Assembly: GCA_002923195.1 (NCBI GenBank)
Contig: BDTH01000047.1
Coordinates: 1 to 49,919, forward strand
Origin: a bacterium BMS3Abin15
GTDB lineage: Bacteria > Patescibacteriota > Minisyncoccia > Moranbacterales > 2-12-FULL-40-10
DNA length: 49,919 bases
Direction of reading: 5' to 3'
Shown: positions 11,745 through 25,598 of the stretch, in pieces
How the letters are laid out: each line of letters opens with the position of its first letter
Position numbering within the stretch: the first letter of the stretch is position 1
Notes under the pieces: model-generated
What the model was told of the DNA's origin: nothing
The model's database searches: none
What the model saw: only the letters and a program-made list of their open reading frames with translations
Made by a program: the position numbers and the translations under genes

Positions 11745-12395
11745 ATGAAGAAAGAACGAGTGCAAATTTTTATTGATGGTGGCAATTTTTATCACCTTGC
11801 TTTAAAGAAGATTGGAACTAATGAAGTTGGTTTTTCGTTTGAAGATTTCGCTAGCTTTCTTGCTAATAACAGGGAAATTGTTAATTTAGGAAGGAGATAC
11901 TATATAGGAACAGTTAGGGAACAGGAAGGAGACCCTAGAAGCAAAAAAGCAATGTCGAAGCAGACAAAATTATTTACGATTCTCAAATCGACCGGCTGGG
12001 AAATAAAAACAAGTAAGTTGAGGTTTAGAACAGAAAGAATAAGAATAGATAACAGGGTAATTAATTATCAAGAACTTCAGAAAAAGGGGATAAAAGAAGT
12101 TGTGATAAGAACCAAAAGAGAAAAAGGAATAGATGTAAAACTCGCTACCGATTTAATAGTTGGGGCAGTGGACGATAAATATGACGTGGCAATTATTGTT
12201 AGTTCTGATAGCGATTTAGTCCCTGCGATAGACTGGGTTAGAGCTAGAAAAAATAAGAAAGTTGAATATATCGGCTTCTCGATGATTGATAATAAAAACA
12301 AAAAAGAGAACTCCAAGCCTTTGCAAACCATGATTGCTCGTACTGACGTTCAGAGAATATTAGTTGAATCAGATTTGAGAAAATTTATTAAATAA
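11745..12395 (+). CDS. NYN-domain (LabA/DUF88, PIN-like) ribonuclease
   Basis: IFIDGGN, EKGIDVKLATD and SSDSDLVP acidic motifs. Confidence 0.9.
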   Translation: MKKERVQIFIDGGNFYHLALKKIGTNEVGFSFEDFASFLANNREIVNLGRRYYIGTVREQEGDPRSKKAMSKQTKLFTILKSTGWEIKTSKLRFRTERIRIDNRVINYQELQKKGIKEVVIRTKREKGIDVKLATDLIVGAVDDKYDVAIIVSSDSDLVPAIDWVRARKNKKVEYIGFSMIDNKNKKENSKPLQTMIARTDVQRILVESDLRKFIK

Positions 12396-12780: not shown

Positions 12781-14241
12781 CTATTTTTTAGAAGCTAGTT
12801 TTTTAAGAAGATCCAGGTCTTCTTTTTTTATTTCTTGAAGGATGTATAGGATCAAAAGATAGAAAGCAGTCAAAACAATGCTCCAAACAACGAACATCAA
12901 ATTTTGTGATGGGAAAAAGAAGGATAGCGAATACATCAGGAGTGTGGCAATTAGCATTTTAAGTAAGCTGGTTAATTTTATCAGGCCTTGAAAATGGCGG
13001 TGAATGTAGAAAAGCATTGTTGCCATTATAAAAACTGAAACAATGGAAGTGGCAATGGCTGATCCCATAATCCCATGTGTTTGGATTAAAACATAATTAA
13101 GCATAATCTTAGCTATCATTCCCACAAGCGCAATGTACATTGGAATTCTGACCAATCCTGCGCCATTAAAAACAAAACTCATTACGTAAAAGACAGTCAG
13201 AAATCCTACGCCGAAAACCAAGACTTGCATTGGCGGGACTGCTTGTTCATAGCCGGCTCCGTAAAAAATATTGATTATTGGTTCGGCATAAACAAACATA
13301 AGGATAGTTATGGGAAGCAGAAGCATTATCATGAATCGCAGTGACTGACTTATTACTTTTTTTGTTTCTTTTATGTCATTTTGAAACGTTGTTTTAGAAA
13401 TAGTTGGTAGGAGAACAATGGTCAGTGCGTAGAAAAGATAATAAGGTATTCGTCCGATAGTTAGCGCTCCATTATAAATTCCAGTCAAGAAATCGTTTTG
13501 AAGCATGGCTTTTACAAAATATAGGTCCACAGTAATTAATATTTCATAAAAAAGCATAAAAAGAGTGATTGGCCAGGCGTAGCTTATCAGTTTATGCCAG
13601 TCGAAATCGTAGTCCTTATTGTCAAAGAATTTTTTTGATATCCATACTTTATCAATAATCCAGGCGACAAAAAATACTAATAGGGGAGCGGCAATGTATC
13701 CGATAACAGATCCTTTTACTTTGAATAAATAAGCCAGTCCGATTATGAACATTATCTTAGCAACAGAACGGACGACTTTTAAAGCCGACTGCACATTAAA
13801 TCGGTGAATTCCGGTGTAATAATAAAAGTAAAATGAAGCGGCGGCAAAAGCGGGGATGATGAGGGATGATAATCTGAAAAGCGGAGTGAGAGTCGGGTCT
13901 TTCAAAGCCAGGGCTATCACCGGCGCCAATAAATAGAAAATAATCGTAATTGAGCTAATTAAAATTGTCTGGGCTATTATCGCTTGTTTCTTAATCAGCC
14001 TGACCAGTCCGGGCTTGGTGTCGGAAATCTCGCTGATGTACTTATTCATAGCCGAAGGGATTCCCCGGCCAATAAGCATTATAATCATCGTAGTAAGCGT
14101 TATTACCAGTCCGTAGCGGCCGTATTCGGCGGGACCTAAAATCCGTCCCACCCCGGAGTGGACGATATAGCCGGAAAGATTAAATATTATCTCGGCCGCT
14201 GTCAGCCAAAAAACCGATTTTACAATATGTTGTCTAGGCAT
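12781..14241 (-). CDS. Polysaccharide flippase (Wzx/MurJ-like MOP exporter)
   Basis: GRILGPAEYGRYG, YAWPI, GIYNGA and GIMGSAIAT pattern; multi-pass (12-14 TM expected for the family). Confidence 0.9.
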   Translation of the reverse strand: MPRQHIVKSVFWLTAAEIIFNLSGYIVHSGVGRILGPAEYGRYGLVITLTTMIIMLIGRGIPSAMNKYISEISDTKPGLVRLIKKQAIIAQTILISSITIIFYLLAPVIALALKDPTLTPLFRLSSLIIPAFAAASFYFYYYTGIHRFNVQSALKVVRSVAKIMFIIGLAYLFKVKGSVIGYIAAPLLVFFVAWIIDKVWISKKFFDNKDYDFDWHKLISYAWPITLFMLFYEILITVDLYFVKAMLQNDFLTGIYNGALTIGRIPYYLFYALTIVLLPTISKTTFQNDIKETKKVISQSLRFMIMLLLPITILMFVYAEPIINIFYGAGYEQAVPPMQVLVFGVGFLTVFYVMSFVFNGAGLVRIPMYIALVGMIAKIMLNYVLIQTHGIMGSAIATSIVSVFIMATMLFYIHRHFQGLIKLTSLLKMLIATLLMYSLSFFFPSQNLMFVVWSIVLTAFYLLILYILQEIKKEDLDLLKKLASKK

Positions 14242-14272: not shown

Positions 14273-14896
14273 TTAGGATATTAAATTCTTAAGCTCATTG
14301 AAAATTTCTTCCTTAATCCTGTCCCCATTAATGACTTTAAGGTTATATTTTTCTATACTGCCGTCAAATAATTCCTTTTTCTTTTTCAGATAATTTAGTC
14401 CCTGATCAGGCACGCAGTCGCGCTGTATAATTTTATCCGGATCAGTTTGGAGATAGATAGCAAAGTCGGGCTTGATAACTTTCTTAACCCACCTGTCATC
14501 CTGAACTTGATTCAGGATCTCAGGAGATTCCGGATCAAGTCTGGAATGACACAAGGATAGATAATTTATATTTATAACCGTGTCATAAAAATATCGGTCG
14601 CTAAGCATATAGTCGTAATTTTTGTTACTTAACTTGTTCAGTAACATTTTAAATCTTAATAAGTCAATATGTAGGGCGATTTTGCGCAAAAATATTTTTA
14701 GCCAGCCGGCTTTCTTAATGCTTATTTCTCTTCCGCCAGAATCCTTCTTTTTTCCTAAAATTTTATTAGCAATACCAAAATCAATTGCATGGAAATAAAA
14801 AACCCGCTTTCCCTGCGATTCTAAATAATCTTTTAATAATTGTGCCTGGGTTGATTTTCCGGATCCGTCTATGCCCGATATGGTTATTAATTTCAT
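14273..14896 (-). CDS. Thymidylate-kinase-like P-loop kinase with in-frame palindromic insertion
   Basis: ISGIDGSGKSTQ P-loop, LSDRYFYD motif; insertion CHSRLDPESPEILNQVQDD. Confidence 0.8.
   Translation of the reverse strand: MKLITISGIDGSGKSTQAQLLKDYLESQGKRVFYFHAIDFGIANKILGKKKDSGGREISIKKAGWLKIFLRKIALHIDLLRFKMLLNKLSNKNYDYMLSDRYFYDTVININYLSLCHSRLDPESPEILNQVQDDRWVKKVIKPDFAIYLQTDPDKIIQRDCVPDQGLNYLKKKKELFDGSIEKYNLKVINGDRIKEEIFNELKNLIS
14494..14551. repeat. TGTCAT...ATGACA double-hairpin repeat, in frame in the kinase gene
   Basis: TGTCATCCTGAACTTGATTCAGGATCTC-AGGA-GATTCCGGATCAAGTCTGGAATGACA; intergenic relative at 21542-21596. Confidence 0.8.
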
Positions 14897-15099: not shown

Positions 15100-15573
15100 A
15101 TGACAGTCAATTTTACAACCGACGAGAAAAAATTAATTAAACATGCCAAAAAAGCAATCGTCAAATACAATAAAATGCGCCACAAAAAAGGAAGTGTTGA
15201 TACGCTATATTCTTTTTTGATGTCAGATAGCGGAAAAATACATAACGGTGCTTGCTTTGAGCCAAATATTGCACAGGCAACCATTTGCGGTGAGAGACAC
15301 GCAATAGCAAGTATGGTTTTAGATGAATCCTATAATGCCAAAATAAAATATATAGTTGTCGCAGACCCAGTTCCAGAAGTGCAAGAAAATAGCACTCCCC
15401 CTTGTGGTACATGCAGGCACATTATTTGGCAATTTGGCACATCCAAAACCTCGGTCATTTGTATGCAATATATACAACGCAAAAATGACTGGATTTTTCC
15501 TAAAGCAGAAAAATATTTTATTAAAGATCTGTATCCATATCCGTATGAGCCCAAAGAAGATTTATGGAAGTAA
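15100..15573 (+). CDS. cdd: Cytidine deaminase family protein
   Basis: ICGERHAI and PPCGTCR zinc-binding motifs of tetrameric CDA. Confidence 0.85.
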   Translation: MTVNFTTDEKKLIKHAKKAIVKYNKMRHKKGSVDTLYSFLMSDSGKIHNGACFEPNIAQATICGERHAIASMVLDESYNAKIKYIVVADPVPEVQENSTPPCGTCRHIIWQFGTSKTSVICMQYIQRKNDWIFPKAEKYFIKDLYPYPYEPKEDLWK

Positions 15574-15728: not shown

Positions 15729-17225
15729 CTAATACATCAGCACTGCTACCGGCTGCATCTTGGCTACCGACTTTATGATTTTATTAGCTTCCATCCCGGA
15801 AATTACTTCTTCAATATCCTTATAATACCCGCTGTCTTGCAAGATTACGCCTTTAGATTTAGCGTTGTATAATTTAACGTTGCTTTTCTCAACTCTCTCT
15901 CGCAACTCTTTCTTATTCCGGGGAACATCTTTTCCTGCATCTCTTTTCCTCCCCGTTCCGTGTCCGGCAGAGAAGAATGAAGAAGTATTTTGATCAGTCC
16001 CTACTCCTATATAGGCGGGAGTACTCATTGAAGAGGGAATAAAAACTGGTTCTCCTGTAGATGAAAATACCGGATGGTCACTCATCATTTTTGGTCCGTA
16101 GGCGCGAACCGCTCCGTTTCTATGAACCCATACATCCTCGTTGAAATGCTTTTCTTTGTTAATGGAAATGTGAGAAATATCATAGAGCAGATCCAGATTA
16201 ATTTGCTTTCCAAATACCTTTTCCAAGGTCTGGTCTAAATTGTGGGTTATTACAGCTCTATTGGCGAATCCAAAATTAGCCACCGCTTTGTGAGCTCTAA
16301 TAAACATTCTTCCTTCCAGGCTTTGATCGTCATAACCGAAAAATTCATCCTTATTTTGATAGTCTTTTATTTTTCCTGACAGATGATTGTACACAGGCTT
16401 CATCTGGCTTCCGAAAAAAGTCGTTCCGATTTTGAGCATTATCTTCTGGCTCAAATGTTCCTTAGTCTTAGGAGTGTACATGTAGGAAGCATATTGTCCT
16501 AAAAGACCGGAACCAGTATGGATCATGAAAATATACTGACCTTCCTTTACTCCAAGTTTTTCAGCGGTAACGGTGTCTTTTATTTCTGTTATTTTCATCA
16601 AGTCCAAAAAGTGATTGCCAGCGGCGCCCAAAATCCCCAGCCGATATCTGCCTATTTTGAAAAAGAATTTGGGAATTACGTCAAGAATTTCACGTCGAGT
16701 AGTTTCCGGATCAGAGAAATTTCCATTATGAGAAGTGTTTTCAATTTCATTTTGTATCCTAGTTTTAAAATGTTCTTTAAGCGGAGCAATCCCTTTTTGT
16801 CCGATATCAATCGCCAAATCATACGGTATTTTAGTGCCGACATACTTTTTGGTTGGTATTGCTTTAACGAGCTCCTGAAAAAGTTCGTCTATTTTTTCCG
16901 GACTCGTATTTTCGTCTAAGTCGGTTTTAATAAATCTCATTCCGCAATTGGGAGCGGTATCATTGATTTGAGGAAATAAGAAATTTTTGCTGGCCACGGC
17001 TGTTCCAGTAGGATTTTTGCGTCCCGGCTTAGGATGAACGTCACTCATAGCGGCAATGTGATGGAATAAACGATCATCTTTGGCTAGATTTTCCAACTGA
17101 CTGAAGGTTTCTTCATTAGGCAACAGTTCGTCAGAAGCATGGAAAACAACCGGCACTTTCATCTTGTCGGTCTTAAACTCTTTTTTATTTGGGGATATTG
17201 CGGATAACTCTTTTCGCATATTCAA
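15729..17225 (-). CDS. rtcB: Divergent RtcB-family (RNA-splicing ligase fold) protein
   Basis: SDVH, NCG, GNHFLD, HTGS, DISH, VHRNGA, PSSM, AGHGTGR and YKDI align in order with RtcB motifs. Confidence 0.85.
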   Translation of the reverse strand: MNMRKELSAISPNKKEFKTDKMKVPVVFHASDELLPNEETFSQLENLAKDDRLFHHIAAMSDVHPKPGRKNPTGTAVASKNFLFPQINDTAPNCGMRFIKTDLDENTSPEKIDELFQELVKAIPTKKYVGTKIPYDLAIDIGQKGIAPLKEHFKTRIQNEIENTSHNGNFSDPETTRREILDVIPKFFFKIGRYRLGILGAAGNHFLDLMKITEIKDTVTAEKLGVKEGQYIFMIHTGSGLLGQYASYMYTPKTKEHLSQKIMLKIGTTFFGSQMKPVYNHLSGKIKDYQNKDEFFGYDDQSLEGRMFIRAHKAVANFGFANRAVITHNLDQTLEKVFGKQINLDLLYDISHISINKEKHFNEDVWVHRNGAVRAYGPKMMSDHPVFSSTGEPVFIPSSMSTPAYIGVGTDQNTSSFFSAGHGTGRKRDAGKDVPRNKKELRERVEKSNVKLYNAKSKGVILQDSGYYKDIEEVISGMEANKIIKSVAKMQPVAVLMY

Positions 17226-17302
17226 AAACGTGGTATTATTATTATCAGTTCTTTGAATCTAAAAATAAATATAAAAATAAAATTTTTTACGGAGGTATGA
17301 TT

Positions 17303-17548
17303 ATGGCTAAGGATAAAGAATGTTGTGGAGAATGTGTTTTTCTGAAAGGAGAAAATCCAAGTCCTAAAAAAATTATTGAATGTGGAAATTGTGAAATTCT
17401 ACAGACCTTGGTTTTACCAAGATTCTGCGCTTTACGGGAAGATCCGCACAGATTGGAAATTTGCAAGTCTACAACTGAAAAGGGTGATATTGCAAAGTGT
17501 TTTGATTGTTGGGGAGCTTTTTTCAGAAGGGACCCAGTTGAAGCTTAA
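17303..17548 (+). CDS. Cys-rich 81-aa protein (start moved to MAKDK)
   Basis: GGAGGT SD; 9 Cys including CCGEC, CGNC and CFDC; own terminator. Confidence 0.7.
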   Translation: MAKDKECCGECVFLKGENPSPKKIIECGNCEILQTLVLPRFCALREDPHRLEICKSTTEKGDIAKCFDCWGAFFRRDPVEA

Positions 17549-17566: not shown

Positions 17567-17600
17567 GAGCCTGCAGATTTATCTGTCGGGCTCTTTTTTT
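17567..17600 (+). terminator. Rho-independent terminator
   Basis: GAGCCTGCAGAT-TT-ATCTGTCGGGCTC followed by T7. Confidence 0.7.
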
Positions 17601-18759
17601 ATAGACTCTCATAAATTTTTTTATATTCCTCAGCCACTTTCTTGATATCAAAATTCTCCTCTGCGTATTTTCTGGCATTCTTTCCAATTTCTTCTCGCTT
17701 ACTTTTATTTTTATAAAGATCTGAAGTTGCTTCAATTAATTGCTTTACATCTCCACTTTTTATTGTAACAGAATTGTGACTGTTTGCGAATTCTTTCAGA
17801 ACCGGTAAATCGGAAATAATAACTGGTTTTTCACAGGCCATAGCCTCAACAACCACCAGGGGCACATCAAATTTTCCCTTCATATCTTTAGCGGGAAAAA
17901 TGACAACATCAGAGAGGTTGTATAGCTTTGGCATATCAGAAAAAGTGTCAATAAATGTGATTTTAGATAGTAATCCCTTATCCTGCAATTTATTTTTTAT
18001 TTCTTTCTTTTTTTGTATATCCCCAGTGCCCTTTATGCGACAGGCAAAAATAAACTTGGCATTAGGAATAGATTTAAATATTTGTGGAAGAGATTTAGCT
18101 ATATCATCTGTCGCTCCGAGGCGTGTATATTCTCCGGGATAAACAATTACAAAATCATTTCCGGAAATGCCTAAATCGTTAATTAGTTTAATATTTTTTG
18201 GAGCAGAAGAATAATGACCTAGGTCAATGCCTGGGTAAATTCTTTTAGTATTTTTAAGACCTAGTTTCTCCAGTTTGTTTTTCGCATAATCAGAATAAGT
18301 GACAGCTAAATTTCCAAATATCAACTTCTTAATCTCTTCGTCAGAGAATAGATCTTCCCGTAATGTTGCGATTGTTTGGAGCGTTCCGACTTTATTATTC
18401 AACGCAAATTTTTTTATCAAGGCCGAACTTAACTTAGTGGGAGTAAAGACAAAGTGGGCAATATCAAACCTGCGTAGATATCTACGTAGATATCTCAGTA
18501 GATATAATTTTTGCAGAAAGCCGAAATTACTAGATGTGTATATTCTTTCCTGTTGTATATTTTCAGGGAGACCTTTAATTATTTTATTAACCAAAAGAGT
18601 AAACTGAAAACCATCTACGTTTTTAGCGAGATAATAAGCGAAATTTTTTGACGCTTCGTCCCAGGGAGGAGAAAGGGGGCGAGTGACTAAGAGTATCTTT
18701 TTTCCTCCAGAGGCGGATCCGCCTTTGGCGGACACATTCTTTTGATTTAGAGAATGCAT
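17599..18759 (-). CDS. Glycosyltransferase family 4 (start moved to MHSLN)
   Basis: KILLVTRPLSPPWDEASKN; DVPLVVVEAMACEKPVI; the ORF-track extension overlaps the upstream gene. Confidence 0.88.
   Translation of the reverse strand: MHSLNQKNVSAKGGSASGGKKILLVTRPLSPPWDEASKNFAYYLAKNVDGFQFTLLVNKIIKGLPENIQQERIYTSSNFGFLQKLYLLRYLRRYLRRFDIAHFVFTPTKLSSALIKKFALNNKVGTLQTIATLREDLFSDEEIKKLIFGNLAVTYSDYAKNKLEKLGLKNTKRIYPGIDLGHYSSAPKNIKLINDLGISGNDFVIVYPGEYTRLGATDDIAKSLPQIFKSIPNAKFIFACRIKGTGDIQKKKEIKNKLQDKGLLSKITFIDTFSDMPKLYNLSDVVIFPAKDMKGKFDVPLVVVEAMACEKPVIISDLPVLKEFANSHNSVTIKSGDVKQLIEATSDLYKNKSKREEIGKNARKYAEENFDIKKVAEEYKKIYESL
18702..18732. repeat. TCCGCC/GGCGGA double-hairpin repeat in frame in the GT4 N-terminus
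   Basis: Minus strand TCCGCCAAAGGCGGATCCGCCTCTGGAGGAA encodes SAKGGSASGG. Confidence 0.8.
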
Positions 18760-18763
18760 AGAC

Positions 18764-19129
18764 CTAATTATTAAAATCCTTATAAATTTCTTTCTTATCT
18801 TCATCATCTGAAACTCGGATGGTAATTTTTTTGTCCTCATATTCTGCGACATCAAGCTTTATGGTTCGTTTCTCACCTTTTCTGACTTCAATATCACCCT
18901 CAAGGGACGGCTTATTTTTACCTTTTATAATTGACCAGTGAAATTTATTTTTATCGCTGTGGTTTTCAATAACAAAATGCAAGTCGTCACTTTCGATGTC
19001 GTTAAAATATAAAACCCACCAGTTTTTATTATGGTCATAATCCCGCTGTCCTTGCTCAATAAATGACAAAAACATGAAACTGACCGCCAGTAATATTATT
19101 AGTGAATAAATTATAGTTTTATTGTTCAT
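18764..19129 (-). CDS. Hypothetical exported or membrane-anchored protein
   Basis: N-terminal TM then a beta-rich domain; 4-nt overlap with the upstream gene. Confidence 0.7.
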   Translation of the reverse strand: MNNKTIIYSLIILLAVSFMFLSFIEQGQRDYDHNKNWWVLYFNDIESDDLHFVIENHSDKNKFHWSIIKGKNKPSLEGDIEVRKGEKRTIKLDVAEYEDKKITIRVSDDEDKKEIYKDFNN

Positions 19130-21057
19130 ATATTTTTATAATATACTGCTATTTGTTCATTGCTATATATTTTCCAAAATTCTTTTGATTTCTCAAATTG
19201 GGAACCGTCAAAATCAGGATTGACCATTATGAAATTGGTTCCGGTTCCCTCAAAACATTTTTTGCCATTAACTGTGTTGGGAGTAGATATCATCCAAAGA
19301 GTGCACATCTCTCGCTTTTTGACCGGATCCTCATAGCGCTTGAAAAATCCGCGCGACAGAGGGTAACTGTAATCGCGCATGAAAAATAATTTAATCCAAG
19401 CATCGGCGATAATGTAATTATGGTCTTTTAAGATAACATCTTCGTTACCCGTATTATTTGCCAGGTAGTCGGAAGCATTAAAGGTTTGGACTGCTTTCTG
19501 ATACTCTCCTCTATCCTTTAATGATTGCGAATTGTCGTACAGTCCGCTTACGGCGGTAAAGGTAGCTAGAATCAAAAATAGAACATAAAGTACTCGTGCG
19601 TTTAGGTAATATTTTTTAAATTTTATATTTTTCACCTGATTGATTCCCCATACGAATGCGAAAGCACCAGCAATGGAAAGGGGATAAGAAATATAGTTGG
19701 CAATTCTATTTGATGGTATATCCAAATATAGCCACTGGGGCTTAAGAGACATTAGTAAAATTGCGACAACCCATCCTATTAAAATTGCAGAAGCGTAAGT
19801 TTTTCTTGTTCGCAATGCCAAAAGCATAAATAGTCCGATTATTCCCAGCACCATCCTAGCTTCACCAGCGGTGAATTTGAGTTGGGTAAACGTAAGTCCC
19901 GCGCGGGTGGCCTTTGAGGGTCCGCCCACGGCTGTTTCTACGGCACCAGTTTCTATATAACTGGGAGTATATACAAAGAGCGAAAAGATAAAAGTAAAAA
20001 GTAAAAAGATTATAACGGGCTTGGACCAGATGATATTCAGCCAATTGCGGGTGTATTTTATAATATTTTTTAGATTGAAAATTGTAAAAGTTAACAGTGC
20101 GAAAGCAAATACATAAACAAATACCAGGGCACTTAAGTGGTGTGTATAAAATATTCCGGCAGTGATGAATAAGGCCAGAGTTAAAAATGCAGAACTTTTT
20201 TCTTTAAGGGCGCGGAAGTAGAAATAAAGCGAAAGTGGAATAAGGAGGTTGCCCAGAATATTTCCTACTACGCCTCCACTTACGAACTTGGCCTGGGAAG
20301 AGGAGATAGTATAAAGAGGGCCTAATAGCAATAAGGCGAAAATGGAAATATTTTTCCCCTGTTCACAGTTTTTGAATAATCTAAGCGTCAGAATGAATGT
20401 TGCTAGTACTCCTAGTATATTTATCAGAAGGAGTACTAGTGAAGGAAAATAGGATATGAAGGGTATTCTAGAAATTAAATTAATGGCGGAAAATATCAGA
20501 TGTTCCCCGATAATGAAATCTGCTATTGGCTGTGGCTCACTAATTTGATAATCTCCATTATTTTCCGTAATCTCCATTTTTTCATATACTGGTAGCTCGC
20601 CAGTCTGGGAAATTTGTTTAGACCAGTACATGTGATGCCCCAAATCGGTAGAGGTGGGGAATATGGTGTTGGTTAGATAAATTGTTTTTATGAAAAGTGT
20701 GAGAAGTATAATTAAAATAATTAATATAATTTGATTTTTAGAAAAGGCCAGTTCTCTTTCTTCTCCTTCAACTATTTCTTTCTTAAATCTCTTTTTGTAG
20801 ATTCCGAAACAAGTCGCGGCGAATATTAAAATTAAAAGTAAAATAGTTACGATATTAAGAGAGATTCCAATTTTCCCTGCCAGGATCATCAGAAAGTCGA
20901 TAATAACAATGCTTAGACCAAATGATATTATGAACTTTTCCAAATCAGTAAATATTTTTCTTTTTCCCCAGGTAGCCAATATTAAAAAATATCCTGGAAC
21001 AAATAATACCAGAGCTATTGAGATGAAAAATAGAATTTGTTGAAATATAAAACTCAT
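19126..21057 (-). CDS. Large multi-pass membrane protein, probably GT-C type glycosyltransferase
   Basis: PTSTDLGHHMYWS loop motif, FYTHHLS, many TM segments, C-terminal soluble domain. Confidence 0.65.
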   Translation of the reverse strand: MSFIFQQILFFISIALVLFVPGYFLILATWGKRKIFTDLEKFIISFGLSIVIIDFLMILAGKIGISLNIVTILLLILIFAATCFGIYKKRFKKEIVEGEERELAFSKNQIILIILIILLTLFIKTIYLTNTIFPTSTDLGHHMYWSKQISQTGELPVYEKMEITENNGDYQISEPQPIADFIIGEHLIFSAINLISRIPFISYFPSLVLLLINILGVLATFILTLRLFKNCEQGKNISIFALLLLGPLYTISSSQAKFVSGGVVGNILGNLLIPLSLYFYFRALKEKSSAFLTLALFITAGIFYTHHLSALVFVYVFAFALLTFTIFNLKNIIKYTRNWLNIIWSKPVIIFLLFTFIFSLFVYTPSYIETGAVETAVGGPSKATRAGLTFTQLKFTAGEARMVLGIIGLFMLLALRTRKTYASAILIGWVVAILLMSLKPQWLYLDIPSNRIANYISYPLSIAGAFAFVWGINQVKNIKFKKYYLNARVLYVLFLILATFTAVSGLYDNSQSLKDRGEYQKAVQTFNASDYLANNTGNEDVILKDHNYIIADAWIKLFFMRDYSYPLSRGFFKRYEDPVKKREMCTLWMISTPNTVNGKKCFEGTGTNFIMVNPDFDGSQFEKSKEFWKIYSNEQIAVYYKNI

Positions 21058-21619: not shown

Positions 21620-22735
21620 TTACTGATTACTAGTTATTTTCTGTATTTCCTCTAAATATCTTTTGGCAATCTTATCCCAGCTATAATTTTCAATTACAAA
21701 CTGCCGGGATTTTTCACCGAATTCTTTTCTAAAATTATCGTCGGCTAACAACTCGTTGATTTTATGAACGTAGACCTGCCTCGACGGTAGGCGGGTATCA
21801 ACATCATCCATTTCAATTAAAAATCCATTCTGTCCGTCTTTGATTGCATCTTGCAATCCCTCAAGCCGAGAAGCAATTACCGGAAGGCGGCAGGATCCGG
21901 CTTCGATTACTGAAATTCCGAAACCCTCCATATCTCCCTCGATTATTATATTGGGCTGAATGAATAAATCACAGGTGTTGAATAATATATTTCTGACTTT
22001 GTCGCTTACGTATCCAAGCATCTTAACTCTATCGGACAGATTATTTTTCTTGATAGCATTTTTAATGTTTTCTTTGTCGGGCCCGTCTCCGACAACAACA
22101 TAGGTTATGTTCTCGGGCAGCCCTGGCATTACATTACCAATAAACCAGGCCACGCCTTTTCTTTTAGCCAGCCGTCCGGATGTAAGCAATACTTTTCTGT
22201 TTTCTAAATTATCACTCAAAATTTTCTTTAAGTCATTTCTTGAATAATTTCCTAAATTTTTTTCTGTGTCTACGCCATTGGGGATAAAAACAAACTTATC
22301 TTCATAAATTCCTTTTTTTACCCCGACTCTTATGGTTTCGTTTCCCACGGCGATTAGCTTGTCGCATTTTTTAATAAATATTTCCACCCATAATTTTTGG
22401 AATAAGCTCATTTTATAGGTAAGGTCCAACCCGTGAACAATGGATACAACAGGTTTTTTGTAGAGCAATTTTACAAACCACCCTATAACACCTAACACGC
22501 CATCACCCAAAAGAAGCACATCGTATTTTCTGAACAAAAACAGCGCTCGAACAAGAGCGTAAGGAGCAAATATCGGAAGAAAAATCTTGCCACGGGTATT
22601 GGCTATGGTCTTAACATCGGCAATTTTCGAAAGCCACCTGGAAAGTTCATAATTCTGGCTTTCAATCCCGCCAACAGTAGGGGGATAAGCCCGGGAGATA
22701 AAAAGAATTTTTACCCTGTTAGATTTTTGCGCCAT
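21620..22735 (-). CDS. Glycosyltransferase family 4 (PimB-like)
   Basis: SRAYPPTVGGIE; DMEGFGISVIEAGSCRLPVIAS. Confidence 0.92.
   Translation of the reverse strand: MAQKSNRVKILFISRAYPPTVGGIESQNYELSRWLSKIADVKTIANTRGKIFLPIFAPYALVRALFLFRKYDVLLLGDGVLGVIGWFVKLLYKKPVVSIVHGLDLTYKMSLFQKLWVEIFIKKCDKLIAVGNETIRVGVKKGIYEDKFVFIPNGVDTEKNLGNYSRNDLKKILSDNLENRKVLLTSGRLAKRKGVAWFIGNVMPGLPENITYVVVGDGPDKENIKNAIKKNNLSDRVKMLGYVSDKVRNILFNTCDLFIQPNIIIEGDMEGFGISVIEAGSCRLPVIASRLEGLQDAIKDGQNGFLIEMDDVDTRLPSRQVYVHKINELLADDNFRKEFGEKSRQFVIENYSWDKIAKRYLEEIQKITSNQ
21774..21796. repeat. CCTGCC/GGCGGG hairpin repeat in frame in GT4
   Basis: ACCTGCCTCGACGGTAGGCGGGT; encodes TRLPSRQV on the minus strand. Confidence 0.6.
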
Positions 22736-22822: not shown

Positions 22823-23773
22823 TTATTTTTTATATTTCTGCTTTCTTAATAAATACATCTGATCTTCGGTAATTCTTCTGGTGTTTTTTACCATATCGGC
22901 TATGAAAGCGAAAATAATAAGCTGGATTCCAACAAGGAGCAAAGTTACTCCCAGCAGAATCAAGTTTCTGAACGGGGATATTTTAAAATCCTGAAAGTAG
23001 TTCCAAAAAAAGTAGGTAAACAATAACGCGGAAACACCAATTAAGAAAAGACCTGGCGCTCCAAAGAACTTCATGGGGCGTACATCCCGTACGGCTTTCA
23101 AGATTATTCTGGCAGAATTGTTTACATATTTATAAACACTTCTCACTACTCTAGAGTTTCGTTCAGCGAAATAAGTTACCTCCACAGGCACGAATGCTAC
23201 TTTTAGATTTTTTCCTACGGCGTCAATAATAACCTCCTGTGTATAGGTAAAATTTCCAGGAAGCGTAAGCCGAAGAAGGGTGTCTCTGCTGTAAGCCCGG
23301 AATCCGCAAGTTAAGTCATTAATCTTGCTGTTGAGAAATTTTCCAATTAATGAAGCGGCCAGTTTGTTTAAAAACTTTTTTGTCCAAGGAATATTTTTAG
23401 CCCTGTGTTTTCCAAATCTGTCAGCGCTTACTAGATCCGCTTCCTTATTGAGAATAGGCTTGATTATCTTAAGAATATCGTTGGGATCAAATTGTCCATC
23501 TGCGTCAATATTAACCATTAAGTCAGCGCCATTTCTGAGGGCTTTCCCTACGGCCGTTCTAAATGTTATGCCAATGCCACGGTTCATATTGTGGGAATAA
23601 ACAAAATCAGCACCTGCTTGCTTAGCTATTTCGGCGGTGCCATCTTTTGATCCATCGTCAATAACCTGTATGAAAACTTCATCGGCTCCTTCTATTTGCC
23701 GAGGTATTTTTTTTATTGTTTTTCCGATTCTTTCCGCCTCGTTGTAAGCGGGAAGATTTACTACTAATTTCAT
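22823..23773 (-). CDS. Glycosyltransferase family 2 (DPM/polyprenol-phosphate glycosyltransferase-like)
   Basis: LPAYNE, VIDDGSKD, IDADGQF (DxD), DLTCGFRAY; two C-terminal TM. Confidence 0.92.
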   Translation of the reverse strand: MKLVVNLPAYNEAERIGKTIKKIPRQIEGADEVFIQVIDDGSKDGTAEIAKQAGADFVYSHNMNRGIGITFRTAVGKALRNGADLMVNIDADGQFDPNDILKIIKPILNKEADLVSADRFGKHRAKNIPWTKKFLNKLAASLIGKFLNSKINDLTCGFRAYSRDTLLRLTLPGNFTYTQEVIIDAVGKNLKVAFVPVEVTYFAERNSRVVRSVYKYVNNSARIILKAVRDVRPMKFFGAPGLFLIGVSALLFTYFFWNYFQDFKISPFRNLILLGVTLLLVGIQLIIFAFIADMVKNTRRITEDQMYLLRKQKYKK

Positions 23774-24152: not shown

Positions 24153-25598
24153 CTACCGCCCTATCCCTCTGTATATTATACCATACTTTTGAATAGCATC
24201 TTTGTCCAGGCAATTTTTTCCGTCGACAATAGCTTTAATGGAATATTTTTTAAATATGCTTGGATCAAGTTTCTTAAATTCATCGTGGTCAGTGACAAGA
24301 ATAACCGCTTTGGATTTCCTTAATAGTTCCTCTATGTTTTTCACATCTGACATATGCGGAACGTGAGGATCAAACATTATTACATCCGCATCGTGTTTTT
24401 GTAAATGCTCCAATATTTTGAAAACTGGAGATTCTCTAAGGTCTGCAACGTTAGCCTTATATGATATGCCCAGAATCCCTATGGGAGTTCCCTTCATTGG
24501 CATTTTAATACTATTTAAAGAATGTTGAAGAATATTAACTGTGTATTCTGGCATTGAGTTATTTATTTTTCTGGCAATTTTTAAAAACTCGTGGTCAAAT
24601 CCGCTAGCCTTAGCTCTTTCTATAAGATAATAAGGATCAACCGGGATACAATGACCACCAACGCCGCAACCGGGAAAATGAGGCATAAAAGCGAATGGCT
24701 TAGTAGACGCGCCTCTTATTACGTCGTCAATGTCTATATTCATTCGGTCAAACGATTTTGCTAACTCATTGACGAAAGCAATATTAACATCCCTGAATGA
24801 ATTCTCTACGATTTTAACAGCCTCAGCTTCACGAATTGATTTCATCGGATAGATTTCGGCATCAAGAATTTTTTTATAAAACTTCACAGCCAAAGATAAT
24901 CCCTTTTTACTGAAGGCGCCGACTACGCGGGGAATATTAACCACATTCCAATTAGCATCTCCTGGGTTTATTCTTTCTGGGCAGTGAGCTAGGTAATAGT
25001 CTTTTCCTACTTTGTATCCGGCCTTGGCGAATATTGGCTCAACAACCTCTTCGCATACTCCGGGATTAACAGTAGATTCTATTACTACCAGTTGTCCTTT
25101 TTTAAAATTCTTTACAATTGAAGTTACGGCTTTCTTGACCGGACTTAAATCGGGATAATATTTTTCATCTACGGGAGTAGGAACGCAAACCAAAACTATA
25201 TCTGATTTTTTAATAACCTTGGCATCGGCAGTAGCTTCTATTTTTACCCCGACACCAATTTTAGCAGAATCTTTCGAAGATATATTGGTAGAGCTGATAG
25301 ATGACTTCGTCTTGCGGTTATTATTTTTTTCAGAGCCTGTCTTGGGATTGGTGTTGGGGTTTACTTTAGGCAAGTTGTTCTCTAAAAAATCCTCCTTTAT
25401 AGGGCTTTTTCCGGAATTAATTTTCTTAATCTTTTTTCGATCATTTTCCAATCCAAAAACCCTAAACCCACTTAAGGCAGATTGTACAGCCAATGGAAGA
25501 CCAACATAACCCATTCCGATTACGCAAACCGTTTGTTTTAACCTGTTTTTCCCTTTATTTTTCATAGTTATATTGAATTTATCAACATTTTTCATCAT
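24153..25598 (-). CDS. Nucleotide-sugar (UDP-GlcNAc/ManNAc-type) dehydrogenase with in-frame palindromic insertion
   Basis: IGMGYVGLP, CVPTP, IESTVNPG, CPERINPG, ENSFRDVNIAF, GVGGHCIPVDP, DLRESP. Confidence 0.93.
   Translation of the reverse strand: MMKNVDKFNITMKNKGKNRLKQTVCVIGMGYVGLPLAVQSALSGFRVFGLENDRKKIKKINSGKSPIKEDFLENNLPKVNPNTNPKTGSEKNNNRKTKSSISSTNISSKDSAKIGVGVKIEATADAKVIKKSDIVLVCVPTPVDEKYYPDLSPVKKAVTSIVKNFKKGQLVVIESTVNPGVCEEVVEPIFAKAGYKVGKDYYLAHCPERINPGDANWNVVNIPRVVGAFSKKGLSLAVKFYKKILDAEIYPMKSIREAEAVKIVENSFRDVNIAFVNELAKSFDRMNIDIDDVIRGASTKPFAFMPHFPGCGVGGHCIPVDPYYLIERAKASGFDHEFLKIARKINNSMPEYTVNILQHSLNSIKMPMKGTPIGILGISYKANVADLRESPVFKILEHLQKHDADVIMFDPHVPHMSDVKNIEELLRKSKAVILVTDHDEFKKLDPSIFKKYSIKAIVDGKNCLDKDAIQKYGIIYRGIGR
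25247..25359. mobile_element. In-frame MITE-like element inside the dehydrogenase gene
   Basis: ACCCCGACACCAAT (25246-59) and ATTGGTGTTGGGGT (25347-60); exact TTTA/TTTA flanks; encodes PNTNPK...KIGVGV. Confidence 0.85.

Follow-up and report, generated by a model that had tools for sequence, protein, structure and literature searches.

The closest described relatives of the protein considered here are the canonical RtcB enzymes, such as Pyrococcus horikoshii PH1602, Escherichia coli RtcB and human RTCB. In these enzymes (residue numbers are those of P. horikoshii RtcB unless marked as window) the M1 metal is bound by Cys98, His234 and His329, and the M2 metal by Asp95, Cys98 and His203. Asp95 also touches the beta and gamma phosphates of GTP, Asn330 touches the gamma-phosphate, and the guanine is read by Lys480 (O6) and Glu206 (N1/N2) (PMC9745838). 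Arg238, Arg190, Gln194 and His242 hold the 5'-OH strand, at its first phosphodiesters and base, in a solved complex (PMC8051266). An RtcB-like protein is encoded at 15729..17225 on the minus strand of a 49,919-nucleotide stretch of DNA, called the window throughout, from bacterium BMS3Abin15 (assembly GCA_002923195.1, contig BDTH01000047.1, our C47). This organism belongs to the order Moranbacterales (here Moranbacteria) of the Patescibacteriota, and its genome of 1.22 Mb is about 89% complete. On balance, the protein is probably an active enzyme of a distinct and ancient branch of the RtcB family that would act off RNA ends, in the synthesis of envelope glycans or glycolipids, with a dedicated P-loop kinase and a family 4 glycosyltransferase (GT4).

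The window protein shares with canonical RtcB its fold, Pfam family, nucleophilic histidine, the Cys/His/His set of the M1 site, the Asn-His pair, Asp65 and Arg408. Unlike canonical RtcB, it is without Asp95, Arg238, His242, Arg190, Asn330, Lys351 and Lys480 and has gained Lys66 (window). The partners also differ, being a kinase and a GT4 enzyme and not RtcA/RtcR, archease or PrfH, of which RtcR and PrfH were not searched for. Reportedly, Myxococcus xanthus RtcB3 and E. coli RtcB can cap DNA by transferring GMP to its phosphate ends; these reactions differ from the one proposed here in that their substrates are still nucleic acids. According to a 2023 review (PMC10630183), RtcB chemistry can halt once a phosphomonoester has been nucleotidylated and is not confined to the RNA 3'-phosphate as the end that it accepts; RtcB is treated there purely as a nucleic-acid enzyme, with no other substrate class. 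In the full-text literature searched, no link of RtcB to glycosyltransferases, to HPr-kinase-like (HprK-like) proteins or to glycan loci of Patescibacteria was found. A functional analogy may be proposed with the TagF/TagB glycerophosphotransferases, CDP-alcohol phosphotransferases, LicD and LCP ligases, which make the sugar-phosphate-sugar or alditol-phosphate links of wall polymers. Genes for TagF-like, CDP-alcohol phosphotransferase (CDP-OH_P_transf) and LCP proteins co-occur with RtcB-like genes in the clusters examined, the first two in those of relatives. These phosphodiester-forming envelope enzymes have unrelated folds and use pre-made donors activated with cytidine diphosphate (CDP) or polyprenyl diphosphate, whereas the RtcB-like protein would, by analogy, activate a phosphomonoester in situ through a histidine-bound nucleoside monophosphate (NMP).

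The reading frame is intact and, since the identical database protein (P0002) has 496 aa, the ATG given in Table 1 is a likelier start than the TTG. The match to the Pfam RtcB model is nearly end-to-end (residues 43-496 on model positions 1-424 of 426) and scores 238.7 bits against a cut-off of 27 (E 1.9e-70). The NCBIfam equivalog cut-offs are missed, at 121.4 vs 407 bits for NF007153 and 85.7 vs 271.8 bits for TIGR03073. An AlphaFold2 model built from a 146-sequence alignment reached a predicted local distance difference test (pLDDT) score of 96.2 and a predicted template modelling (TM) score of 0.95. Foldseek searches with this model gave significant E-values for RtcB structures only (TM 0.75-0.84, with 0.80-0.84 to 4dwq and 8odo of P. 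horikoshii and human RTCB). As judged from the model, the window protein has the RtcB fold. The feature is real, and it would be a functional variant within the known RtcB family, with a putative glycan-linked function. Close database relatives carry the names Moranbacteria or Parcubacteria (Patescibacteria). The window gene is the only RtcB copy in the source genome, in which no archease and no RtcA above cut-off were found.

The active site was compared by alignment to P. horikoshii RtcB and 33 other RtcBs. The motifs that the original prediction had listed as kept are all present, namely Cys98 (NCG), Asn202-His203 (GNHF), His234 (HTGS), His329 (DISH) and His404 (GHGTGR), and Asp65, His67, Phe204, Arg350, Arg408, Tyr451 and Lys452 are kept as well. 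The substitutions that it had listed are likewise real: DINC has become APNC (Asp95 to Ala), HTGSRG has become HTGSGL (Arg238 to Gly), AHN has become SHI (Asn330 to Ile), HRKG has become HRNG (Lys351 to Asn) and EAPxAYK has become DSGYYK, while MY stands in place of the C-terminal KG. At 23 functionally assigned positions the window protein reads DHANCIRNHFDHGQHIRNHRYKM, compared with a nearly invariant string, DHDNCRQNHFEHRHHNRKHRYKK, in 65 canonical RtcBs. A segment after the HTGS motif is also longer than in canonical RtcB, by about 27 residues.

The nucleophile His404 (window His422) and the M1 triad (window Cys94/His236/His352) are invariant in 121 homologues. The M2 set is incomplete: Cys98 and His203 are present, and Asp95, an aspartate in 100% of the 65 canonical sequences, is Ala91 in the window protein and alanine in 121/121 close homologues. 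Contacts to the 5'-OH strand are replaced, with Arg238, His242, Arg190 and Gln194 appearing as Gly, Gln, Ile and Arg; Arg238 is 100% conserved among canonical sequences, and 41 of the 71 non-canonical representatives have glycine there. At the two guanine-reading positions, Glu206 and Lys480, the window protein has Asp208 and Met497, again fixed in 121/121, and in the majority of the other non-canonical subclades Glu and Lys are retained. Kept residues and substitutions alike are thus fixed across 121 homologues of at least 61% identity, a pattern that looks like that of an active enzyme with a remodelled site and not of a decaying copy. As a separate observation, canonical RtcBs of the Candidate Phyla Radiation (CPR) at five loci (L015, L016, L025, L027 and L031) carry paired changes of Glu206 to Asp and Lys480 to Ile, which hints at altered nucleotide specificity.

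An exhaustive family search over cluster representatives at 50% identity returned 1809 relatives, and the same pattern of losses is common to 71 full-length proteins among the best 150 of them. These 71 proteins form one clade apart from canonical RtcBs (FastTree support 100; IQ-TREE LG+C20, 100 in the Shimodaira-Hasegawa-like approximate likelihood ratio test, branch 0.46). Column statistics indicate that the canonical-invariant Asp95, Arg238 and Lys351 and the near-invariant Arg190, Gly239, His242 and Gln243 have been lost in this branch. Window Lys66, in the motif DxHxK, is lysine in 97% of the branch vs glycine in 97% of canonical sequences, and it could plausibly substitute for a lost metal or lysine at a phosphate-binding site. 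Canonical and non-canonical copies occur together in G250 and in about 8 genomes of the order to which the window belongs; the two types are paralogues. The window-type gene was found in 137 of 151 genomes and 69 of 76 genera of Moranbacteria, and any RtcB at all in 47 of 401 Patescibacteria genomes. Within the Moranbacteria-type clade, a sub-branch (P0124 and P0126-P0131) has lost Asn202, Glu206, Tyr451 and Lys452, and P0128 is additionally without His203 and His404; these proteins are possibly pseudoenzymes derived from the glycan-linked RtcB. At another locus (L147, G487:C23:9800-14568), two tandem full-length RtcB-like copies with identical scores enclose a fragment of GT4b, the GT4 gene described below, which is due to a recent duplication or else to a repeat in the assembly.

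Gene order was compared at 20 Moranbacteria loci, the window and 19 other non-redundant loci with an RtcB identity of 48 to 72%. Wherever the contig reaches, these loci share the order UDP-glucose/GDP-mannose dehydrogenase (UGDH), a small gene, a family 2 glycosyltransferase (GT2), a first GT4 (GT4a), a DUF6541 membrane protein, a 121-aa protein, a second GT4 (GT4b), the RtcB-like gene, a thymidylate-kinase-like (Tmk-like) gene and a flippase. The series GT4b, RtcB-like, Tmk-like is colinear in 20/20 loci, down to 48% RtcB identity, often with spacings of 3-10 bp. Apart from the window, the Tmk-like gene follows the RtcB-like gene in 19/19 loci, and the flippase lies downstream of it in 18/19, L057 giving no hit although its contig continues. 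A complete Moranbacteria-type cluster, with 53-65% identity, was also seen in three records titled 'uncultured Bdellovibrionales' (L048, L049 and L055); the label of these bins is probably wrong.

Distant subclades of the branch preserve the association with a kinase. In subclade A, which is mostly from Omnitrophota (plus G250) and only 31-35% identical to the window protein, the RtcB-like gene is followed by a Tmk-like gene at a distance of 1-22 bp in 4/4 loci. Around it lie genes for GT2, GT4, B12-radical-SAM, LPG_synthase_TM, PMT-like GT-C (a glycosyltransferase of the protein-O-mannosyltransferase family), ArnA/ArnD-like and UGDH proteins, and flippase or capsule genes. Subclade F (Omnitrophota) has the order NTP_transferase, CDP-alcohol phosphotransferase, methyltransferases, GT2, a GT4 of 747-766 aa, LPG_synthase_TM, RtcB-like, PMT-like and GT2. 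In subclades C and E a 350-380-aa HprK-like P-loop protein with the motif G[LP]GGxGK[ST] is encoded immediately upstream of the RtcB-like gene in L059, L075, L095 and L141, and one gene off in L060; subclade C also has genes for APH-family phosphotransferases nearby. The HprK-like protein gives weak matches to HprK-related kinases (TIGR04352, TIGR04355) and ScmC, at 36 vs a cut-off of 200 bits, and a full-text literature search for 'ScmC' returned unrelated acronyms only. In the IQ-TREE phylogeny, the Moranbacteria clade, with its Tmk-like partner, is sister to subclade F, with its HprK-like partner (support 98), and the Tmk-like subclade A lies elsewhere; the kinase has therefore been swapped for one of unrelated fold at least once.

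Gene fusions join the same functions. HprK-like and RtcB-like domains are fused in P0211 (885 aa) and P0302 (828 aa), and in subclade F the long GT4 ends in this P-loop domain, which makes up its C-terminal half (L139, L140). Two Moranbacteria that belong to separate families, G464 and G537, have GT4b and RtcB-like in a single frame, of 887 and 974 aa respectively. As a control, 80 metagenome loci were found with the pattern GNHF[LI]E.., which is shared by canonical RtcBs, and 76 of these were canonical RtcB loci, each with about 4.5 kb of flank. No Tmk-like or HprK-like gene lay within 4 kb at any of the 76. Six matched any of the nine cluster-protein models (five glycosyltransferase or UGDH, one deaminase), mostly several kb from RtcB. 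The original prediction had asked whether homologues of this kind always lie next to glycosyltransferase, flippase and kinase genes; in Moranbacteria, in the distant subclades and in the fusions the link of the divergent clade to such genes is steady. A known anti-phage system was also considered for these genes and rejected, PADLOC defence models giving no match for the RtcB-like, GT4b or HprK-like proteins.

The kinase partner in the window resembles thymidylate kinase in its P-loop (GxDGSGKST), DRY motif and overall NMP-kinase layout, and a profile search of the Tmk-like family against the PDB found thymidylate kinases as the best matches (E 7e-14). It differs from thymidylate kinase in that, going by the alignment and by the motifs of Tmk, the region after the P-loop and the AYQG-type base-binding motif are missing, and in being replaced in sister clades by the unrelated HprK-like kinase. 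Pfam Thymidylate_kin aligns with the P-loop part only. The score for TIGR00041 is 39.2 bits against a cut-off of 83.25. A role as the housekeeping tmk was rejected, a better-scoring tmk (81 bits) being present on contig C29. Likewise, the idea that the Tmk-like protein merely recycles released NMP was rejected, since it leaves the replacement by HprK-like kinases unexplained. Residues ~117-136 of the window protein form an insertion of about 20 aa (HSRLDPESPEILNQVQDDRW) that is absent from all aligned orthologues; this agrees with another early reading of the same DNA, which had described a hairpin-encoded in-frame insertion.

Comparative genomics gives good support to the prediction of a non-RNA role coupled to a kinase. 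In the mechanism envisaged, the partner kinase, here Tmk-like, would phosphorylate a hydroxyl of a sugar, an alditol or a lipid-linked glycan intermediate. The RtcB-like histidine would be charged with NMP from a nucleoside triphosphate (NTP) and would pass it to the phosphomonoester to give X-O-P-P-N. The hydroxyl of a second glycan unit could then attack, forming a phosphodiester and releasing NMP; this is the outcome preferred overall, tentatively and at less than even confidence. Alternatively, the product, activated with nucleoside diphosphate (NDP), could be given to the adjacent GT4 as a donor, which seems rather unlikely. With Asp and Met in place of Glu206 and Lys480, the window enzyme may use a nucleotide base other than guanine. 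The phosphodiester-linked or GMP-capped glycan of the original prediction is putative, as are the substrate and the nucleotide. Elsewhere in the window there are genes for an LCP ligase, a Wzy_C-type protein, three PMT-like GT-Cs and LPG_synthase_TM, and these surroundings would point to wall-polymer or glycolipid assembly as the setting of the chemistry. More broadly, the RtcB branch might, with GT4 and a kinase that can be exchanged (Tmk-like, HprK-like, possibly APH), constitute an unrecognised 'phosphorylate, nucleotidylate, ligate' route in Patescibacteria, Omnitrophota and others, one that would supply their envelope glycans with phosphodiester links or NDP-activated donors and need no CDP- or polyprenyl-diphosphate-activated precursors; this generalization is offered as a conjecture that we regard as possible.

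Several observations weigh against a glycan role. Compact CPR genomes pack unrelated genes co-directionally, so that synteny within Moranbacteria alone is weak; it could be mere inheritance, and it is therefore the distant subclades, with the fusions, that carry the argument. One of these subclades (C; L095, L141 and L059) lies beside histidine kinases and efflux components as well as GT4 and APH genes, and the glycan link is less clear there. The Asp95 site is not uniform, Asp still being present in L038-L041 of the Moranbacteria clade, and loss of Asp95 could impair NTP-dependent self-nucleotidylation. For the branch as a whole, substrate and product are predicted from gene content and sequence. 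No metabolic gap is apparent in the genome, in which the conventional routes are represented by 5 NTP_transferase hits and a TagF-like enzyme; the idea that the module makes up for a lack of TagF or of sugar nucleotidyltransferases was rejected, both being present. Finally, the module is broken in the window by two opposite-strand genes: a cytidine-deaminase-like gene splits rtcB from the kinase, and a Cys-rich open reading frame (ORF) sits in the 374-bp gap between GT4b and rtcB. Because of these insertions, rtcB is probably transcribed on its own in the source genome. The original prediction had placed rtcB in a single minus-strand operon; the run is co-oriented yet interrupted, and 'operon' here is a conserved gene order, not one transcript. 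Its interpretation did not hold in this respect, and it is well supported for the non-RNA, kinase-coupled role, to which synteny, fusions, the control and the replaced 5'-OH contacts all point.

The protein might still be a nucleic-acid end-joining or capping enzyme acting on RNA or DNA 3'-phosphates, with an end-healing polynucleotide kinase as its P-loop partner and a position among glycan genes that reflects packing or co-regulation. This appears unlikely. The protein is the sole RtcB of the source genome, lies far over the Pfam threshold, has the RtcB fold and retains the nucleophile, the M1 site and the Asn-His pair. The pairing of a kinase with a ligase is also a classic layout of RNA repair. 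Capping could survive the loss of Arg238, since the corresponding Arg189Ala variant of E. coli RtcB forms RNAppG just 3-fold slower (PMC8051266). However, Asp95, Arg238, His242, Arg190 and Lys351, invariant or nearly so in the 65 canonical RtcBs, are all replaced; archease, RtcA and a PADLOC defence match are absent; and a canonical RtcB coexists in several genomes. The ends that RtcB requires, a 3'-phosphate and a 5'-OH, are not those that ordinary polynucleotide kinases make, and a conventional 5'-kinase would destroy the 5'-OH instead of creating it, so RNA repair fits poorly. The need for a kinase of whatever fold, together with the fusions to kinase and GT4, is also hard to square with RNA repair, and neither the in-frame GT4 fusions nor the GT4-kinase fusions have a rationale there.

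A protein or peptide target, in which the kinase would phosphorylate Ser/Thr and the RtcB-like protein would nucleotidylate the phosphate or link it to the hydroxyl of a sugar (surface-protein phosphoglycosylation), is less likely again. The partner in most subclades outside Moranbacteria resembles HprK-related protein/peptide serine kinases, by weak hits, and PMT-like GT-C enzymes occur in the clusters. Yet these HprK-related matches fall far under the family cut-offs, the Tmk-like partner in Moranbacteria and subclade A has a small-molecule kinase fold, and no conserved gene for a candidate substrate peptide was seen beside the module; the 121-aa gene, two genes away, was not analysed. Least credible of all, and very improbable, is that the protein has lost catalysis and serves the GT4/flippase machinery as a scaffold or regulatory subunit. 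The degenerated sub-branch described above indicates that non-catalytic retention occurs in the family, but in the subclade of the window the catalytic residues are invariant over 121 proteins down to 61% identity, as for an active enzyme. An active enzyme of envelope glycan or glycolipid synthesis is thus preferred to these alternatives. If this is true, it would represent new enzymology of phosphodiester-bond formation in cell envelopes and would account for a gene that is close to core in an uncultured CPR order. It would also give a function to dozens of database clusters, among them the 71 in the best 150 representatives at 50% identity, that are automatically annotated as 'tRNA-splicing ligase'. 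In addition, the compact kinase/ligase pair could perhaps be useful in chemoenzymatic synthesis of phosphoglycans.

The genes of the locus are listed in Table 1. By Pfam, the minus-strand neighbours are those that the original prediction had described, in the order GT2, GT4, membrane protein, GT4, RtcB, P-loop protein and flippase; the membrane protein, which it had labelled GT-C, is a putative GT-C only.

Table 1. Genes of the glycan locus in the window and the matches on which their assignment is based.
Feature	Position	Strand	Evidence or remark
Wzx/MurJ-type flippase	12781..14241	-	Pfam Polysacc_synt 2.1e-26, plus MurJ, MatE
Tmk-like P-loop kinase, conserved partner	14273..14896	-	Pfam Thymidylate_kin 40.3 bits, residues 6-46 only
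Cytidine-deaminase-like gene	15100..15573	+	Pfam dCMP_cyt_deam_1 4e-7; below NCBIfam cut-offs
Non-canonical RtcB-like enzyme	15729..17225	-	498 aa from TTG, probably 496 aa from ATG 17219; Pfam PF01139
83-aa Cys-rich ORF (MIMAKDKECCGECVF...CFDCWGAFF)	17297..17548	+	GGAGG site 5 nt upstream
GT4 glycosyltransferase 'GT4b', conserved upstream partner	17599..18855	-	Pfam Glycos_transf_1 2e-22
Conserved 121-aa protein	18764..19129	-	Colinear between DUF6541 gene and GT4b
643-aa polytopic membrane protein	19126..21057	-	Only Pfam matches: DUF6541 5.9e-9, DUF1616 9.2e-8
GT4 glycosyltransferase 'GT4a'	21620..22735	-	Pfam Glycos_transf_1 1.9e-32; colinear in relatives
GT2 glycosyltransferase, hydrophobic C-terminal tail	22823..23773	-	Pfam Glycos_transf_2 6.2e-21; 58-74% identical in related loci
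UDP-glucose/GDP-mannose dehydrogenase family (UGDH)	24153..25598	-	Three Pfam UDPG_MGDP_dh domains; heads cluster

Neither of the two plus-strand genes belongs to the shared gene order: the cytidine-deaminase-like gene is not at the equivalent position in any other Moranbacteria locus examined, and the Cys-rich ORF matches nothing in Pfam or PADLOC and has no counterpart at any related locus compared. Promoter-like hexamers precede rtcB on the same strand (17263-17235) and a terminator-like hairpin follows it (15643-15625), both as consensus matches only. The 121-aa protein has no match in Pfam or NCBIfam. GT4b as listed has 418 aa from a TTG, against about 371 aa in its orthologues, the excess being an N-terminal extension of about 45 aa that holds a SAKGGSASGG stretch. 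The frame as listed overlaps the upstream 121-aa gene by 92 nt, and the true start is probably downstream of the annotated TTG.

Beyond the flippase, an NYN-domain nuclease-like protein is encoded at 11745-12395 on the plus strand (Pfam 3e-17; PADLOC candidate defence model HEC-09, 1.5e-17). It was considered as an RNA-damage partner of the RtcB-like protein and rejected, as it is not conserved beside the module in related loci. At the other end of the locus, residues ~70-115 of UGDH form an Asn/Ser/Lys-rich low-complexity insertion in the N-terminal NAD-binding domain, which Pfam reports in two stretches.

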